Positions 24,446 to 60,352 of a stretch of DNA of 64,000 nucleotides are shown here, one piece after another. The translations under genes and the position numbers were made by a program. The stretch is from Octopus vulgaris (lineage: Eukaryota). Under the pieces are notes generated by a model. It did not search any database. It was given only the letters and a program-made list of their open reading frames with translations, and was not told the DNA's origin. Position 1 is the stretch's first letter. Each line of letters opens with the position of its first letter. The stretch spans positions 58,776,001 through 58,840,000 of the forward strand of contig OX597815.1 of assembly GCA_951406725.2 (NCBI GenBank). The letters are read 5' to 3'.

Positions 24446-24795
24446 AGGAGTAGGAGTGGCTGTGTGGTAAGTAGTTTGCTTACCAACCACATGGTTCAGG
24501 GTTCAATCCCACTGCGTGGCACCTTGAGCAAGTGTTTTCTACTATAGCATCAGGCTGACCAAAGCCTTGTGAGTGGATTTGGTAGACGGAAACTGAATGT
24601 ATGTGTGTTTCTGTGTTTGTCCTTGCAACATTGCTTGACAACTGATGCTGGTGTGTTTACATCTCCGTAACTTAGCTGTTTGGCAAAAGGGATCGATAGA
24701 ATAAGTCCTGGGGTTGATTTGCTCGACTAAAGGCAGTGCTCCAGGATGGCCACAGTCAAATGACTGAAACAAGTAAAAGAATAAAAGAAAAAAGA
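24446..24795 (+). mobile_element. tRNA-derived CORE-like SINE
   Basis: GGAGTGGCTGTGTGG head, GGTTCAATCC B box and the shared 3' tail. Confidence 0.85.
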
Positions 24796-32092: not shown

Positions 32093-32453
32093 AGGCGCAG
32101 GAGTGGCTGTGTGGTAAGTAGCTTGCTAACCAACCACACAGTTGCGGGTTCAGTCCCACTGCGTGGCATCTTGGGCAAGTGTCTTCTGCTATAGCCCCGG
32201 GCCGACCAATGCCTTGTGAGTGGATTTGGTAGATGGAAACTGAAAGAAGCCTGTCGTATATATGTATATATGTATGCGTGTGTTTGTGTGTCTGTGTTTG
32301 TCCCCCTAGCATTGCTTGACAACCGATGCTGGTGTATTTAGGTCCCCGTCACTTAGCGGTTCGGCAAAAAGAGACCGATAGAATAAGTACTAAAAGGTGG
32401 TGCTCCAGCATGGCCGCAGTCAAATGACTGAAACAAGTAAAAGAGTAAAAGAG
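32093..32453 (+). mobile_element. tRNA-derived CORE-like SINE
   Basis: GGCGCAGGAGTGGCTGTGTGG head, GGTTCAGTCC B box and the shared 3' tail. Confidence 0.9.
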
Positions 32454-42069: not shown

Positions 42070-42800
42070 AATGATTCAGTCCACTTAAATGCATCCATTT
42101 TAACATGTTTGCATAAATCCTTGCATAGGTTAAACACAGCATTCTTCCACTTGTTGCATTCCTTTTTCAGCACTTTTGTGAGGTTGACCTTCCTGAGATC
42201 ACTTCTGCTCATGTCTTCTTTGGTTTCCTCCTCCATTGGTTTCTTCCATATGAATTTTTTGGCACTTCTTCATGCACTTTTCATCTTCTTACCCATCATA
42301 TGTTCATATCGACATAGTCATTGCTCTTGTACCCTATATTTGATTCCTCGTATACCCAATTTTTTTCTCAGTTCATCTGTACCTTGTCATTCAATAATAC
42401 TAATATTGTACATCCAAAGGATAATATTTCCTTTGTTTCTTTTCCAACTTTTGGACATGTTCTGCATTCAGTACCTACATCTTAGTATGCAGCATCATAG
42501 TTCATACACTTGCATCATACAATTTACTTTTCACTTAGAGAATCCTCTCATTGTTAACAGAGAGATATTAGCTGCCTGAACTCTTTCCACCCTATTCTAA
42601 TTCTGGCAACTAAACTTTCTCAACAACCTCCTCTACTGCTGTTTGTGTCACCTAGGTTATAGAAGGTATCAAATACTTCTATAGAGCTCTCTGAACTTTG
42701 CAAAGAATTTATTATCCTGTGCTATGAGGGTTCACTACTCCTCTACAATTAATGCAGGAAAATTCTGTATTTACTGCCAGCCTATCTTTGTTTCCACTTA
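42070..42800 (-). mobile_element. Degenerate RTE-clade LINE 3' fragment
   Basis: Minus-strand EVFDTFYNLGD and further pieces colinear with the RTE fragment at 29310-30000. Confidence 0.5.
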
Positions 42801-50500: not shown

Positions 50501-51310
50501 AGAATTTTTCATCAAAAGTAGAGTCCAGAGTAATCCATAGGTAGGAGAGGTGCATCCGGAGTGTAAAAAGTCCCAAAAAGAATCCGTAAAGGGTAGAAAG
50601 GTAGAAAGCCCAGTGGAGAAGTTTGTGGGTGATGAGAGGAGACAGGATCAACTGATATATGGGGAGAATTCACGAAAAAAACAAAAGACAAAGACAGGTG
50701 GTGTAGAAAACAAACAGATGTATTAGTATAACACTCGGGAATTGAAGAAGTCTTTTATGTTTCAAGCCTACGCTCTTCCACAGAAAGAAACAAGGAGAGA
50801 AAAGAATGTGTGTAGTGGCTACCGATCTATCATAGCGACTATATATATAGTCGACTATGTGTATATATATATTTTTGTGTATATATATATATATATATGT
50901 GTATGTGCACATGTGTGTATATATGTGTATGTATATATATATGTATACATGTGTATATGTGTGTGTTTTATTTAGCTGTTTGTGTGTGTGCAATTAGTTT
51001 CGTTTAGAAATCTTCTGCGGACAGATATATATATATTCTTTCTCTATTTCTTCCTTCTCTCTCTGTCTCTTCAGTTCTCTCCCTCACGCTTCTCCTTGTC
51101 TCTTCATTACTCTCTTCTTTCTTACTCTCCTCTTTCAGCTCTCAATCTCTCTTACTCAATCTCTCTTCTCTCTTACTCTCTTCTTTTGGCTCCCAATCTC
51201 TCCTTAAGTACATAGACGCTCTCTTTCTCTATTTCTTCCCTACCCCCTATTGCACTATTAGATAATATAAATTAATATAATTAGATAAATAGATAGATAG
51301 ATAATATATC

Positions 51311-54300
51311 AAGAATGTCCAGAACCTGGAAAAGTGACAAATTGGCGTTGTTCCTGAGAGGATGGCGATGCGCTGGCGGAGAAAATCCAGATAACATAAT
51401 TACGGCTGCGCTGAAGAGCAGCGGATACAAAAGGACGTCAGCTCAAATAGAGCGGAAGAAGCAAGAATTTATACGCTCCTACGCACTTGTCAGATCGCAC
51501 ATTAACATGCTGGATGCCGTCTTTGACAGTGAAAAAAGTGAACAAAGTAAAGATGGCAAGGATGGAGACGCAAGCGCTGATGGAAAAGGTCACCCCCACC
51601 TGGTAGACGCCCAGGAAGAAAACTCCAGTGAGAAACCTGCCCGGGAGGTAAACCCAAGTGCGGGTGCTCCTACCGGCACCAAAAGCCATGGACATGGAGA
51701 TGAAAGAACCAAAAAAGGAGGAAAAACTAAAACTAAAACTCAGGCAAAACCAAAAAACGAAACAGCCAAGGATAGAAGCAAACTTAAGCAGCGCACACGG
51801 GTATGTAGGTTCTACCTGAGAGGTGCCTGCCGGCATGGAGAGGAAGGTGCAGGCTGCCGTTTTGCACATCCGGGACCCTGCTGCAGGAACCAACCACCGA
51901 AAGGAAAAGGGATGGACCACGCACCACCTGCCCCAAAACGGAGGTACGCAGATGTGGTGCGTGCCACAAACCGCCAACGTGTTGTTGAAAGGGCAGCTGC
52001 TGAACAAGAATCTTTTTTTGTGCATGGCACAAAAGATTGTACAGCAGCTAACCTGGCTCCATCAAACTCAAGCTCGCAGATGGTACTACCCACAGTTCAC
52101 AAGACCACCACAGCAAATAAACCCAAGGTGGACACCACTGGCAACAGCATACACCTCACCTCGATGCTCCTACTGAACATCAGAGGACTACTAACACACA
52201 GTAACAGGACAAAAGTCCCGTTCTTGAGAGACTTTGTTGCATGCAATCAAGCCTTATGCATAGCACTTACGGAAACACACCTGAAACCGGACATAGCAGA
52301 TGCGGAATTACACATACCACAGTATGTTGTACTACGGACCGACAGAAAAGAAAGGAGTCATGGAGGAGTTGCTATGTACATCTGTGAGGACCTCACACCC
52401 CAGGTCCTTTTGTCATACTCAAACTCGGTGTGTGACACACTAATTGTACATGTAAGGCAACTTGGTGTAGTTGTGTGTGCTACATATCGCCCTCCAGATG
52501 CCCCAAGCCATATGGGCAAGTTTGAAGACTGCCTTATAAAAATAGAAGAAGTTCTAGTCACACTAGAACAGCACATAAGTGTACTTCTCATGGGAGACTT
52601 CAACCTACCCAATGTCAGATGGCCCGAGGGCCTTTCTCTCCCAGGAATGACACGATGTGAACGGGGACAGGCGAGGTCCCTCCTGAACCTCATCAACACC
52701 CTGTACATGGAGCAAGTAATACTCCAACCAACCAGGGCAGGTAACACACTGGATCTCTGCTTCACAAATAATATGGATCTCATCCATAATGTGAAAGTGA
52801 CACCGACACTACTCTCGGATCACAACATGGTAGAGCTGACCATGTACGGGCCAAAGGAAAGCATGGACATGCAGCCTACAAGAAACTCTCAGAATCTTTC
52901 CAGCTTGAACTTCAATAAGGCAAACTGGAAACAAATTGAGAAAGAGATCCTCAAACAAAACTGGCCTGAATGTCTCTCCTCGCCGGACATCGACATGAAA
53001 CTTCAACAATTCATGTCTGTAATGCAAGCCATATGCTACAAATGTGTCCCAGAGAGAAAGGCCATTGTACACAAGAACAAAATCCCCAGAGAGAGGAAAA
53101 TTTTAATGAGACGGCGTACAAAAATCTCAAATCACCTAAACAAACAAATTGAAAGCAGTGAAAAGTCCCGCCTGAAAATAAAACTGTTGGAAATTGAAAA
53201 ATGTCTGCAACTCTCCCATGAAAAGGAAAGAGCAGACAAAGAAGCCTGGGCTATAGACAACATAAAAACTAACCCCAGAGCTTTCTACAGGTATGCCAAA
53301 GAAACAGCTATGGTGCACTGTAGGATAGGGCCACTCCTTGAAAAGGATGGCACACTCACAGGAAAACCAATGAGGGTAAGTGAAATACTGAATGAGCAAT
53401 TCAAGAGTGTTTTCACTCCACCCCTTGGGCATTTCCAAATCAGCAATCCAACTGACTTCTTTACCACTGCAGATATAAAATCAGAGGCGGCGACGATAAA
53501 TTACATCGATATAAAGGAAGACGATGTAATAAAGGCTATAGATGAAATGAAAACAGACTCAGCTATTGGCCCCGATGGATTCCCGGCAATCCTCCTAAAA
53601 GTATGTAAGAGAGTCCTAGCAAGACCATTGCAGTTCCTCTTTCAGAGCTTCCTTGCAGCTGGCAAACTTCCAAGAAAACTGAAGGAAGGTAAAATATGCC
53701 CTATTCATAAAGGAGGTAGCAGAGCGGAGGCCAAGAACTACAGACCTATCTCTCTCACCTCACACATCAGCAAGGTCATGGAACGAATAGTCAGAAGGAA
53801 ACTAATCACCTTCCTTGAAGAAAATGACTTGCTGCCTGACACCCAACATGGTTTCCAACCAGGAAGAAGCTGCTTAACTCAGCTCCTACAACACTATGAC
53901 TGGGTGCTGAAACAACTGCTCAACCACTCAAATGTGGAAGTCATATATCTCGACTTTGCAAAGGCCTTTGATAAAGTCGATCATGGAATGATATGTCACA
54001 AACTGCGTGATCTTGGCATAGTTGGAAAATTGAGAGAATGGCTTCATGACTTTCTGAAGAATAGCGGTGTTCCGCAGGGCACTGTTTTGGGACCATTACT
54101 GTTCATAATGGCCCTCTCAGACATGCCCTCAGCCACGCAGAGAGCCACGATCACAATTTATGCAGATGATACAAAAGTTTCACAGGCAATACAGAACCCT
54201 GAGGACACTAAGCACCTGCAATGTGAGCTGGACGAAATATACAAGTGGGCTGAAAAGAATAGCATGCAGTTCAATGCTGAAAAGTTTCAAGCTTTATACT

Positions 54301-55160
54301 ATCAGCATGCAAAACTGAATGCAATACCCAATGAATACACTGGACCCGGAGGGATTGCAATCCCAGAGGCACAATCAGTGTGTGACCTGGGTATTCACAT
54401 GAGTGATGACGCGACCTTTCATGTACATGTTGCTAAACTGGCAATGAAATGTAGACGGCTGGCTGGATGGATTCTTAGAACCTTTAGAACAAGAGAACAA
54501 GAAACCATGATGGTCCTCTGGAAGACACTTGTCCTAAGCCACTTTGACTATTGCTCTCAGCTATGGTCACCATCCAGTGTCAAGTTGATCACAGAACTTG
54601 AGGCGATCCAACGAAGCTACACGAAGAAGATAGCCTCTGTGCAGCATATGAGCTACTGGGAAAGACTCAAGAGATTAAAGCTCTATTCCCTGGAGCGTAG
54701 GCGAGAAAGATATGCCATAATATATATCTGGAAGATCATGGAAGGACTTGTCCCAAACTTTGGCATTGAGAGTCAGACAAATGCCAGAACTGGGCGCCAC
54801 TGCGTAGTACCAAGGACTCCAAATTTGCCATCAAGATGTAGGACAAGATACTGTGATAGCCTGGGCTTCAGAGGCCCACAGCTCTTCAATATCCTCCCGA
54901 AGAACCTGAGGGACCTGCATGGTGTAGATGCGGATGTCTTTAAAGTAGGACTGGATCACTTCCTGTCAGGTGTCCCGGATGAACCAACTTCACGGCAGGA
55001 GGTGCAGATGAGGGCAGCTGCATCGAACTCTCTCATGCATCAGATGGCGTTTGCTAAAAAGCATCCGTGAGGTAAAATCGTGTAGCAAACCAAATGGCGG
55101 TGCCCCAGCATGGCCACAGCTCATTAGCTGAAACTGGAAAAATCAAATCAAATCAAAATC
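51311..55160 (+). mobile_element. Near-full-length CR1-group LINE
   Basis: Single ORF 51315..55070, 3' stem-loop at 55096-55134 and (AAATC)n tail to 55160. Confidence 0.95.
51315..55070 (+). CDS. LINE polyprotein: Myb/SANT-like (trihelix) N-terminus, CCCH zinc finger, APE endonuclease and reverse transcriptase (ORF1 and ORF2 in one frame)
   Basis: W..L..W..I...L...GYKRT..QIERK; CRFYLRGACRHGEEGAGCRFAH (C-x7-C-x8-C-x3-H); APE motifs LLNIRG, ALTETHL, YRPP, GDFN, LDL, SDH; RT motifs YRPISLTS, QHGF, DFAKAFD, GVPQG, YADD. Confidence 0.9.
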   Translation: MSRTWKSDKLALFLRGWRCAGGENPDNIITAALKSSGYKRTSAQIERKKQEFIRSYALVRSHINMLDAVFDSEKSEQSKDGKDGDASADGKGHPHLVDAQEENSSEKPAREVNPSAGAPTGTKSHGHGDERTKKGGKTKTKTQAKPKNETAKDRSKLKQRTRVCRFYLRGACRHGEEGAGCRFAHPGPCCRNQPPKGKGMDHAPPAPKRRYADVVRATNRQRVVERAAAEQESFFVHGTKDCTAANLAPSNSSSQMVLPTVHKTTTANKPKVDTTGNSIHLTSMLLLNIRGLLTHSNRTKVPFLRDFVACNQALCIALTETHLKPDIADAELHIPQYVVLRTDRKERSHGGVAMYICEDLTPQVLLSYSNSVCDTLIVHVRQLGVVVCATYRPPDAPSHMGKFEDCLIKIEEVLVTLEQHISVLLMGDFNLPNVRWPEGLSLPGMTRCERGQARSLLNLINTLYMEQVILQPTRAGNTLDLCFTNNMDLIHNVKVTPTLLSDHNMVELTMYGPKESMDMQPTRNSQNLSSLNFNKANWKQIEKEILKQNWPECLSSPDIDMKLQQFMSVMQAICYKCVPERKAIVHKNKIPRERKILMRRRTKISNHLNKQIESSEKSRLKIKLLEIEKCLQLSHEKERADKEAWAIDNIKTNPRAFYRYAKETAMVHCRIGPLLEKDGTLTGKPMRVSEILNEQFKSVFTPPLGHFQISNPTDFFTTADIKSEAATINYIDIKEDDVIKAIDEMKTDSAIGPDGFPAILLKVCKRVLARPLQFLFQSFLAAGKLPRKLKEGKICPIHKGGSRAEAKNYRPISLTSHISKVMERIVRRKLITFLEENDLLPDTQHGFQPGRSCLTQLLQHYDWVLKQLLNHSNVEVIYLDFAKAFDKVDHGMICHKLRDLGIVGKLREWLHDFLKNSGVPQGTVLGPLLFIMALSDMPSATQRATITIYADDTKVSQAIQNPEDTKHLQCELDEIYKWAEKNSMQFNAEKFQALYYQHAKLNAIPNEYTGPGGIAIPEAQSVCDLGIHMSDDATFHVHVAKLAMKCRRLAGWILRTFRTREQETMMVLWKTLVLSHFDYCSQLWSPSSVKLITELEAIQRSYTKKIASVQHMSYWERLKRLKLYSLERRRERYAIIYIWKIMEGLVPNFGIESQTNARTGRHCVVPRTPNLPSRCRTRYCDSLGFRGPQLFNILPKNLRDLHGVDADVFKVGLDHFLSGVPDEPTSRQEVQMRAAASNSLMHQMAFAKKHP

Positions 55161-55189
55161 ATATATATATATCATGGTGACTATGTATA

Positions 55190-55520
55190 TAGTAAGAAGC
55201 TGTGTAGCAAGAAGCTTGCTTCCCAACCACATGGTTCTGGGTTCAATCACACTGCATGACACCTTGGGCAAGTGTCTTCTACTATAGCCTAAGCCTTATT
55301 AGTGGATTTTGTAGACAGAAACTCAAAAAAGCCCATATATAATATGTTTGTATGTGTGTGTGTTTGTCCCCCATCACTGCGTGATAACTGGTATTGGTCT
55401 GTTTACATCCCCATAATTTAGCAGTTTGACAAAAGAGACTGGTACAATATATACCAGGCTTAAAACAAATTTTTTTTTGAACTATGGAGTCAATTCATTT
55501 GACTAAAATTCTTCAAGTTA
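55190..55520 (+). mobile_element. Degenerate CORE-like SINE
   Basis: GGTTCAATC and ACCTTGGGCAAGTGTCTTCTACTATAGCC are homologous to the other copies. Confidence 0.75.
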
Positions 55521-57473: not shown

Positions 57474-60352
57474 TCTCTATATATATAAAACTGAGAATGT
57501 GTCTGTCTGTCTGTGTGTTTCCCTAAAACTTGAGAACTACACAACCAATTTCATTCAAATTTTACACATGCCTTACTTAAGGTCCGGGGAGTGTCATCGA
57601 AAAAAAATTTTTAACTTTTTCCCTAGGGCGACCCCACATCAATATCATATCTTCTCCACTATTTCAGTATTACGTGTTAAAAGTGAAACAAAAACATCTC
57701 TCTATTGTGATGCAGACACTTTCACTTTAATACTGAAACTATTAAAGTGAAAGTATTATATAACAGGGATGAACCATTAACAGTGGTCATCCATTTTGCT
57801 AGAAGAAGATCCGCTATGGTCTTATATGCTACACCACTGGTTTTCAATTCATATTAATCAAACTAATATTCAATTTTTCACCCTTATTATTATGTGTGTG
57901 TGTGTATTAGCAATTCGTATAAAATTGCATCAATGACTTGAACTTGAATAAGTGGTTTCACATAAATGGGGATAAATTAAAAAGGTTTGTTGTTATTATT
58001 ATTACTGTTTGACTATTGTAATCACATTTGTTGGTTCCTCGTCAGGGAAACGTTGTTGTGTTGCATTTGTTAAATAATTGTAAACCGTAACCATCCCCCT
58101 TTTGGAGAATGGGCTTTGGTTATTGTTTAAAAATTGAATTGTGTCCCTGTTTGGGGAAATTGACAATATTTTCACCGTCTTTACGGAAGCATTTTTGTTA
58201 AAATGCCTTCGATAGAAGAAAGTCCAAAAATGAATTTCGCTGCAGCCGTACACTTCTATACAAGAGGGAGGACAAGATACAATTGATCGAAATTGCAAGA
58301 GACGAACCTACAATTCCAGTCTGTTATATATTTTGAGTATTGTTATCACTAGCGATATCAAGATATAACTTTGTATTTTGTATTTTATGTGTAGATGTAT
58401 ATATATAGATGTACATGTAATATGTACACATATATACATGCATAATATATCTACCCATACACACATACACACACACATAGGGGAAAGTGTGACTGTGTGG
58501 TAACAAACTACGTTCCAAACACATGGTCCTGGGTTCAGTCCCACTGTATGGTGACTTGGCATGTGTCTTCTGCTGTAGCCTCAGACCAACAAAAGCCTTC
58601 TCAGTGGATTTTGTACATATATACAGGCATACATACATATATATACACGCATACGTACATATTCAGCATAAACACTCTACCACTACAACTAATAACTGTT
58701 GGGAACACTTTCAAACCTGCCTTACATTCGAACCGGAATCTCAAAAACATTGTCGCCTTACATCTCATTCTCATTTCATTACCAACACAGGGAAATAAAA
58801 CTTACTTCTCACTACGGGACAATGGATGATGGTAACAGATATTTACCACATGCTACCTTATCAAGTGAAGTATATTGTCATCCACTTCACCTCTAACCTT
58901 CATAGCGTACAGACAATTCAAACGACCCACATCACTATACCACCACTGATACCTTCCAGACCAGCTGCAGGCCTACAGAACTATTCTTAACAGTGTACGC
59001 CAACGCGAGGGACGAATCTTCTTCCTCGATGCTCCTGGAGGGACAGGAAAAACATTTATTACAAAGCTTCTCCTTGCAGAAGTTAGGCAGCATCAGGACA
59101 TTGCAGTAGCTGTAGCCTCCTCTGGCACTGCAGCTACTTTGTCACCCAGTGGCAGGACAGCACACTCAACTTTTAAACTCCCTCTCAATTTAGCAGCATC
59201 CGAAATGCCTTCATGCAACATCAACAAAAGCTCAGATCAGGGACAAGTACTTAAAATGTGTCATCTAATTGTCTGGGATGAGTGAACTATGGCTCACAAG
59301 GGAGCTTTGGAAGCATTAGATAGAGCCCTGAAAGACATCTGAGACTGTCAGGCTCCAATGTGAGGTGTAACGCTTCTGTTGTCAGGTGATTTCAGGCAAA
59401 CTCTTCCTGTCATTCCGAAAGGCACTAGAGCAGATGAAGTCCAAGCATGCCTAAAGTCCTCTACCCTGTGGTATCATGTTACAATTTACAGTCTCACCAC
59501 TAAAATGAGAGCTCAGCTACACGGTGACAAAATGTCCACAAAGTTTGCACAGGACATTTTGACACTTGGTGAAGGCAAGATGCCTCTCAATGCTGCAGGA
59601 CAAATGGAAGTGTGGTCATTTTCCTCTGTTGTTAATTCTGTAGATGACCTCAAAAACAAAGTCTTTCCCAACTTCACACAAAACTACCAAAATCACAATT
59701 GGCTGTGTGAAAGAGCAATATTAGCTCCAAAAAACGTCGCTGTTAACAAAATTAATCAACAGCTAATGCATTCTCTTCCCGGCACTATACACACTTACAA
59801 GTCTGTTGATACAATTCCAGATATAAATGAAGTTGTGAACTATCCTCCTGAATTTCTCAATTCACTGGAGCCTCCGGAAAAGGTGATAATGTCTTTATTC
59901 CAAGAATTCCTCTTACTTCATCAGGAACAGAAATTCCATTTACATTCAGAAGACTGCAATTCCCTCTTCGTGTCAGCTTTGCCATGTCCATTAACAAATC
60001 TCAGGGTCAAACCCTCCCTGTACCTGGTCTTCTCTTGGAAGAGCCCTGCTTCTCGCATGGGCAACTGTATGTTGGCTGCTCAAGAGTAGGAACCAAAAGA
60101 AACCTTTTTGTATATGCTCCACAAGGAAAAACAAGGAACATTGTTTACAACGAGGTGTTATAATCTTAACAGCCAGGAGATATATACATGATCCCCTTTT
60201 TTTTAACAAACTTCATGTACTTTCATGTATTTATATTAATATACATATATAGGTGTGTATGTGTGTGTGTGTGTGTGTATCAATATATATATAACGGAAA
60301 AGTCTAATTCTTCAATTGAATGTAACTGGACAACGCCGGGTATCTCTGCTAG
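57474..60352 (+). mobile_element. Internally deleted Helitron with PIF1-like helicase pseudogene
   Basis: 5' A|TC and 3' CTAG|T (60349-60353) with a degenerate subterminal hairpin. Helicase motifs DAPGGTGKTF, SGRTAHSTFKLPL, WDE, GDFRQTLPV, FAMSINKSQGQT and HGQLYV, interrupted by stops and frameshifts (58940-60160). Confidence 0.88.
58477..58615 (+). mobile_element. 5' half of a CORE-like SINE nested in the Helitron
   Basis: GTGACTGTGTGGTAA..GGGTTCAGTCCCACTG. Confidence 0.65.

Follow-up and report, generated by a model that had tools for sequence, protein, structure and literature searches.

How long interspersed nuclear elements (LINEs) translate their second open reading frame (ORF2) is a long-open question, and the models tested so far, human L1 and Bombyx SART1, are of the reinitiation type. 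SART1 translates its ORF2 by stop-start coupling, from an AUG that overlaps or adjoins the ORF1 stop. Background on initiation in L1 and Zorro3 is given in PMC7175516 and PMC1965478 (papers are cited here by accession, for those parts of their text that were available to us). Frameshifting has so far been proposed for scattered LINEs only, from their frame layout: it is stated for the Dictyostelium non-LTR (long terminal repeat) elements TRE5-A and TRE3-A (PMC5911963), and either +1 shifting or reinitiation has been suggested for Paramecium LINEs (PMC5405496). Here, we describe a CR1-type LINE from Octopus vulgaris, found in a stretch of 64,000 nucleotides (nt) of assembly GCA_951406725.2 (contig OX597815.1, positions 58,776,001 to 58,840,000; 'the window' in the following), in which ORF1 and ORF2 overlap. 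Comparison with its relatives makes it very probable that programmed -1 frameshifting at a slippery heptamer yields, in this lineage, an ORF1-ORF2 fusion that lacks the last helix of ORF1.

The copy in question, a member of what we call family B, lies on the forward strand. A stop-free frame of 1257 amino acids (51297-55070) joins its ORF1 to its ORF2 and encodes a weak CCCH finger, an apurinic/apyrimidinic (AP) endonuclease and a reverse transcriptase (RT). Up to a run of T, ORF1 (51315-52019, ATG at 51315) comprises a weak Myb/SANT-like start, a CCCH-type zinc finger (51804-51869; E 0.005, below the Pfam curated cut-off) and a linker; compared with the sibling copy L012, ten codons are deleted in frame. 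The run itself counts seven T (52013-52019) and, together with the following G (52013-52020), represents the predicted -1 shift site. Siblings with six T read TCT TTT TTG (Ser-Phe-Leu) at this point, that is, U_UUU_UUG in the phase of the ORF1 codons; the last stop of the -1 frame, which is the ORF2 frame, lies three codons 5' of their heptamer (TGA, 52001-52003), and their ORF1 ends with the TGA at 52174-52176. The overlap of about 163 nt (52013-52176) holds the C-terminal helix and tail of ORF1 in one frame; the -1 frame, free of stops, encodes a linker that leads to the endonuclease. An ATG in the ORF2 frame (52164-52166), ten nt 5' of the ORF1 stop, is a candidate reinitiation codon and corresponds to ATA in a related family, A. 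ORF2 (52164-55070; YADD at 54159-54170) is 18 codons short inside the RT region compared with the sibling L188, and is followed by a short 3' untranslated region and an (AAATC)n tail (55071-55160, tail from 55139). A preliminary description of the window had reported the seven T within a single open ORF1-ORF2 frame, and an ORF1-type peptide, LCMAQKIVQQLTWLHQ..SPRCSY, that runs in another frame up to the TGA at 52174-52176; we find both as described. Named database proteins matching the element come from Octopus species.

The preliminary description had also called for a count of the T over genomic copies. In the 2.8-Gb genome, where family B has at least 2048 first-look candidates, 53 distinct junction loci were drawn from the best-scoring 30 of each search: 39 have six T followed by a purine in phase, ten have five T, two carry a substitution and one an upstream deletion, and a single one, the window copy, has seven T. 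The extra T is a private homopolymer slip, either in the germline or as an assembly error, so that both explanations offered earlier, a genuine fusion allele or a homopolymer error, stand as alternatives for this one copy. The expectation that reads with six T would speak against a slippery site was mistaken, in that six T are the family state and complete the in-phase heptamer. Likewise, contigs assembled from four sequencing runs, three of them presumably of RNA, contain a run that is one T shorter, at 56.6/56.6, 153.2/153.2 and 49/62.7 of the depth and, for the DNA run, at 42245/144075; these contigs confirm the six-T form at other loci and are silent on expression and on the T count at the window locus. 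The fusion in the window is ordinary copy damage, marking a putative recoding signal that is widely conserved.

This conservation extends over all 12 families with a readable junction, five from the octopus genome (A, B, C, E and G) and seven from metagenomes, each of which has an in-phase heptamer, U_UUU_UUR in nine cases and G_GAU_UUU in three. U_UUU_UUA is the shift site of HIV and G_GAU_UUU that of umbraviruses (both PMC5009743). At the level of individual loci, the heptamer is intact and in phase in 24/30 copies of family A, 39/53 of B, 45/59 of C, 14/15 of E and 19/24 of G. Siblings in families A and C read TCT TTT TTA and those in E AGT TTT TTA, and family G, which was retrieved with an endonuclease query without use of the motif, has ACT or TCT TTT TTA 159 nt 5' of the endonuclease, with no stop in the 53 codons of its -1 frame, which opens a few codons 5' of the heptamer. 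Family G is also very young, with many copies about 99% identical and an ORF2 frame open over 1043 codons (L222-L251). The metagenome scan returned 12 loci, ten of which reach the junction and represent the seven families (L139 and L147 end before it and were omitted; L137, L143 and L146 duplicate L136, L142 and L145); four of these families have U_UUU_UUA and three CAG GAT TTT. Scans of viral contigs returned no relative.

In most copies, the heptamer coincides with x-Phe-Leu codons 126-327 nt before the endonuclease, and the x codon varies (TCT, AGT, ACT, CAT, AAT) with its third-position T constant. In expanded subfamilies of family C, whose endonuclease is 33% identical to that of B, the heptamer lies 222, 210 or 126 nt 5' of the endonuclease, shifts that are multiples of three. 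Apart from the pairs A-B (77%) and L141-L142 (54%), the endonuclease N-termini of different families are only 26-48% identical, and the families occupy separate deep branches in a FastTree phylogeny. That a heptamer is kept across families at 26-54% identity, in the form of two interchangeable motifs of viral type, points to an exact site and provides a predicted transframe peptide. The earlier suggestion of a gag-pol-like slippery site heading a -1 overlap of about 160 nt thus holds for family B and for all 12 families.

The second feature expected of a frameshift signal, besides an X_XXY_YYZ heptamer in zero-frame phase, is likewise present: starting at the heptamer, the -1 frame stays open until it enters the second gene, and stops are tolerated upstream. 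Over 11 families (family G was added later, and a subfamily, D, was excluded as not independent of C), the -1 frame has no stop in the 879 codons between heptamer and endonuclease, as against 83 stops in the 1100 codons that precede the heptamer and 55 in 890 codons of the +1 frame (Fisher p 2.5e-22). In shuffles of synonymous codons, the heptamers reached a summed log10 P of -13.0 and the open frames one of -11.1, values that are indicative rather than exact because A and B, and L141 and L142, are related. As a further control, ten of the elements were examined for Phe-Leu pairs elsewhere, in ORF2, and none of the 44 found is written T TTT TTN. Finally, A, B, D and E each include natural copies in which the frame is intact over the 1018-1068 codons that separate the heptamer from the stop of ORF2.

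Of the two frames of the overlap, that of ORF1 is the conserved one. Between families A and B, the ORF1 frame preserves 31/53 residues and the -1 frame 19/50; over the first 20 overlap codons, mismatches are distributed 2/2/8 over ORF1 codon positions 1/2/3. Because the mismatches gather on ORF1 third positions and identity in the -1 frame is low, the -1 frame appears to be constrained mainly to remain stop-free. In the preliminary description, this stretch was named a dual-coding overlap; both frames are indeed open, but the term is too strong. The ORF1 protein is widespread, with 1686 clusters at 50% identity related to family-C ORF1 in a protein search. Among the best 150 of these related proteins, 138 have a tail of at least 60 residues past the fingers, and 125 of the 138 have F[LF] in it. 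In only 3/125 tails is F[LF] preceded by one of the residues that have no codon ending in T (E, Q, K, M, W), compared with a background of 25.8%. The predicted C-terminal helix (residues 187-214, core pLDDT (predicted local distance difference test) about 90) begins at the shift-site Phe. At their N-termini, the ORF1 proteins of A, B and C have a weak Myb/SANT-like domain (window 51315-51500, L056, L071), and those of E and many relatives a PHD-like domain (L119, P0042, P0091); the number of CCCH fingers is one in A and B and three or more in C and E.

Several observations weigh against frameshifting. Since the predicted helix begins at the shift-site Phe, the count of x-Phe-Leu in proteins is ambiguous and may reflect a helix N-cap, a complication that the DNA counts alone escape; F[LF] is also missing from 13/138 tails, four of which have [EQ]-D-F, fitting G_GAU_UUU, and several of which appear truncated. 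G_GAU_UUU was itself admitted as a motif only post hoc, with the sequences already seen. A stimulatory 3' hairpin, for which folding had been suggested as a check, did not rise above shuffles in A, B or C (z -1.4 to +1.5). With 12 families folded in three window sizes each, no window reached z -2 in seven of them (A, B, C, G, L138, L144, L145), and values of -2 or lower occurred in five (E, L136, L140, L141, L142), out of 36 tests. In favor of frameshifting, candidate hairpins lie 8-13 nt 3' of the heptamer in L140, L141 and L142 (z -2.4 to -4.4); the stems of L141 and L142 begin 8-9 nt past it and share their closing pairs, but covariation between the two is not shown and their inner register differs by one. 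A simple pseudoknot scan was positive in just 2/12 families, and 5' of the heptamer, hairpins gave no signal (mean z 0.22). We also considered whether the shift region might pair with the 3' end in the four own-genome families A, B, C and E. In B alone, three of four queries placed such pairing at rank 1-2 among 102 windows, the ranks in A, C and E being 6-37; the duplexes were heavily bulged, and as a conserved feature this pairing is not supported. Semliki Forest virus is described as frameshifting without intra-mRNA structure (PMC5009743). Lastly, AUGs occur in the ORF2 frame inside the overlap in five of the 12 families (A, B, C, G and L140), one or two per family and at unrelated positions, and in B and G, though in no other family, such an AUG lies close to the ORF1 stop.

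These AUGs invite the reading, which we consider unlikely, that ORF2 gives rise to a protein of its own through termination-reinitiation or internal initiation, either at an AUG near the ORF1 stop or at a non-AUG codon, with the heptamer as a by-product. The AUG lies ten nt before the ORF1 stop in family B and three codons before it in G, and overlaps the T-run in A; endonuclease start and ORF1 stop are at most 11 nt apart in most families, and ORF2 initiation in human L1 is reported to be AUG-independent (PMC5009743, PMC1965478). However, the position of the AUG differs even between A and B, and six of the 12 families (E, L138, L141, L142, L144, L145) have none in the ORF2 frame between its last stop and the endonuclease motif, while in L136 the sole such AUG precedes the heptamer by 48 codons. 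An AUG that overlaps or adjoins the ORF1 stop, as in SART1, is not a conserved feature, since only B and G have one near that stop. Reinitiation would also leave unexplained why none of the 879 -1 codons starting at the heptamer is a stop and why slippery codons were chosen there (0/44 in the controls), and the closeness of endonuclease and ORF1 stop would follow from the Leu and Ile codons of the endonuclease, which give rise to stops when read in the frame of ORF1. The internal initiation that the preliminary description had set against frameshifting is weakened by the six families that lack an AUG before the endonuclease, and keeps some room in family B itself.

Other rivals place the event in RNA processing, in transcription or in the DNA, and are still less credible. 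If the T-run were the polypyrimidine tract of a splice acceptor (TTTTTTAG), a spliced RNA could link an upstream start to ORF2; AG directly follows the run in six of the 12 families (E, G, L136, L140, L141, L142), and the residue after F[LF] has a codon starting with G in 85/125 protein tails. We regard this as very improbable, given that no AG follows the site in A, B, C or the three G_GAU_UUU families, that none of 30 family-G loci is a spliced copy, and that the contigs of the four sequencing runs contain no GT..AG joint with the T-run at its end, although such contigs show presence rather than absence. Two of the 30 family-G copies (L226, L250) are 5'-truncated at the T-run; in place of ORF1 sequence, the run is preceded there by (TA)n and by short, duplicated pieces of the element, so these are not spliced copies. 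That RNA polymerase slips and inserts a U, producing a transcriptional frameshift, is more doubtful still. The run is prone to indels, with +1 and -1 variants in every larger family, but it measures merely six T, and four T in the G_GAU_UUU families, and polymerase slippage usually needs longer runs. Its constant phase relative to the ORF1 codons suits ribosomal slippage, and slipped RNAs would retrotranspose into seven-T copies, which are rare (1/53 in B, 2/59 in C, 1/24 in G). We give equally little credence to rare DNA-level fused alleles, of the type of the window copy, as the source elements that supply ORF2. Fusion at the site is recurrent (window, L040, L120, L135; proteins P0173, P0078), yet copies inherit the state of their source and, depending on the family, 74-93% of the loci are unfused and have an intact heptamer; moreover, the fused copy in the window is 18 codons short in its RT. 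As a consequence of T-run indels such as those in L040, L120, L135, P0173 and P0078, gene calling sometimes yields ORF1 and ORF2 as one fused protein.

Programmed -1 frameshifting, which we favor on comparative grounds, namely phase, conservation, the open frame and the lack of an AUG in half of the families, would operate as follows. Most ribosomes would keep their frame and produce ORF1p with its C-terminal helix, while a minority would slip into the -1 frame by tandem slippage of the Phe and Leu tRNAs, or of the Asp and Phe tRNAs on G_GAU_UUU. The product of the shift would combine the N-terminal part of ORF1, that is, a Myb-like or PHD domain and the CCCH fingers, with a poorly conserved linker, the endonuclease and the RT, and it would lack the ORF1 helix, since the shift-site Phe marks the beginning of that helix. 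With no 3' structure found in family B, efficiency would be low and the ratio of ORF1p to ORF2p therefore high, which would suit a low need for ORF2p. Beyond this, we lean towards a broader picture, in which an old and very diverse CR1 lineage with a CCCH-finger ORF1 uses, clade-wide, a retrovirus-style -1 shift far upstream of the ORF1 stop to swap the ORF1 oligomerization helix for endonuclease and RT; in the octopus, this would happen without local RNA structure, the ratio being set by the bare slippery site or by a trans-acting factor such as the ORF1p fingers. If so, ORF2p bears RNA-binding fingers of its own in these elements, and gene callers truncate these ORF2 proteins.

The assignment to CR1 is based on several features. 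ORF2 encodes an AP endonuclease and an RT and lacks an RNase H, with Exo_endo_phos_2 and RVT_1 as its only Pfam domains, and the elements end in 3' microsatellite tails, (AAATC)n in B and (GAAAT)n in E, with a further one in C; truncated copies are frequent, and family A ends in an A-rich tail. Our own RT tree carries no named references, but by eye, over about 90 residues, two published octopus RT rows resemble ours, O.sinensis_104 family B and O.sinensis_156 families C/D; both are classed as Jockey/CR1 by tree in Martelossi et al. (2023, PMC10294476; supplement files 23 and 19). CR1-Zenon, described as lacking ORF1 and having a poly-A tail (PMC13343379), does not agree with the presence of an ORF1 of about 296-318 amino acids or with the microsatellite tails of B, C and E. 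Proto2 is no better match, its RT rows differing clearly by eye, with the matching octopus rows labelled CR1. We found no description of a conserved slippery heptamer in CR1 elements in a literature coverage outside of which lay most subscription papers and the Repbase reports. The available text of PMC10294476 does not contain the word 'frameshift', nor does that of PMC9115989 on an RTE element, and the available text of an ORF1 survey (PMC4120745) contains none of 'CCCH', 'overlap' or 'frameshift'.

Two further copies in the window lie on the reverse strand. Copy 1 (12989-16693), a 5'-truncated and frameshifted member of family A, is 72% identical in DNA to the family-B copy over 3.2 kb. As previously noted, it reads AAAEQDSLICMVQRIVRQLNWLHQ, has no T-run, retains the open MHGAKNCPAAKLA frame and carries a 1-nt deletion at the start of the endonuclease. 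The missing T-run is private to copy 1: its slippery site (16140-16154) has decayed from the TCT TTT TTA found in 24/30 family-A loci, and it is the one substituted locus at this site in the family. The third copy, of family C (17238-20185, approximate ends), has lost its junction and endonuclease by deletion; its siblings read AAC TCT TTT TTA. At positions 1-491, also on the reverse strand, lies part of the RT region of a family-B element, which matches the main copy at 97% identity. Elsewhere in the genome (G000:C28, about 6.8-10.6 Mb and 22.74-22.76 Mb), many equal-scoring matches to the family-B endonuclease lie about 5.7 kb apart, a spacing that suggests tandem arrays holding a LINE copy.

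Near the 3' end, a CATGG motif (window about 55105-55135) is common to the divergent families A, B, C and E and is likely part of an RT recognition signal. Directly 3' of the LINE tail lies a short interspersed repeat resembling a SINE (about 55160-55390), with further copies at 7565-7742, 21918-22097, 24459-24597, 32106-32323 and 58493-58615; the copies are 72-80% identical. The window also contains a PIF1-like helicase fragment on the forward strand (59364-60089; Pfam E 3.7e-16), possibly derived from a Helitron, and its first 12,000 nt (1-12000) are of low complexity and strongly AT-rich (GC content 3-28%), with many spurious long ORFs.

How do these elements compare with the systems described so far? 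With human L1 and Bombyx SART1 they share a bicistronic ORF1/ORF2 LINE RNA and a low output of ORF2. In human L1, ORF2 is reached by reinitiation at or after the ORF1 stop (PMC5009743, PMC1965478), whereas in the present families, unlike in L1 and SART1, 33-100 codons lie between the opening of the ORF2 frame and that stop, which comes second. TRE5-A and TRE3-A belong to a different, L1-like lineage, and the passage on them in PMC5911963 names neither a heptamer nor a test. Drosophila HeT-A is likewise a non-LTR element reported to require a frameshift (PMC5009743, PMC5443660), but there the shift takes place within gag, and the element has no RT gene. Umbraviruses and dianthoviruses have G_GAU_UUU in the same position as three of the metagenome families (PMC5009743); these viruses rely on a 3' stem-loop and long-distance pairing, which is not conserved in the four own-genome families. 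HIV-1 gag-pol differs in several respects, given that the elements described here are non-LTR, encode an AP endonuclease, have no protease to cleave the fusion and, in 7/12 families, showed no 3' stem-loop. In other respects it is closely similar: most families have the same heptamer (PMC5009743), a structural ORF with zinc fingers is fused to an RT ORF, and the first ORF runs past the shift site. If our interpretation is correct, a gag-pol-style fusion exists in a LINE lineage with an AP endonuclease, too.
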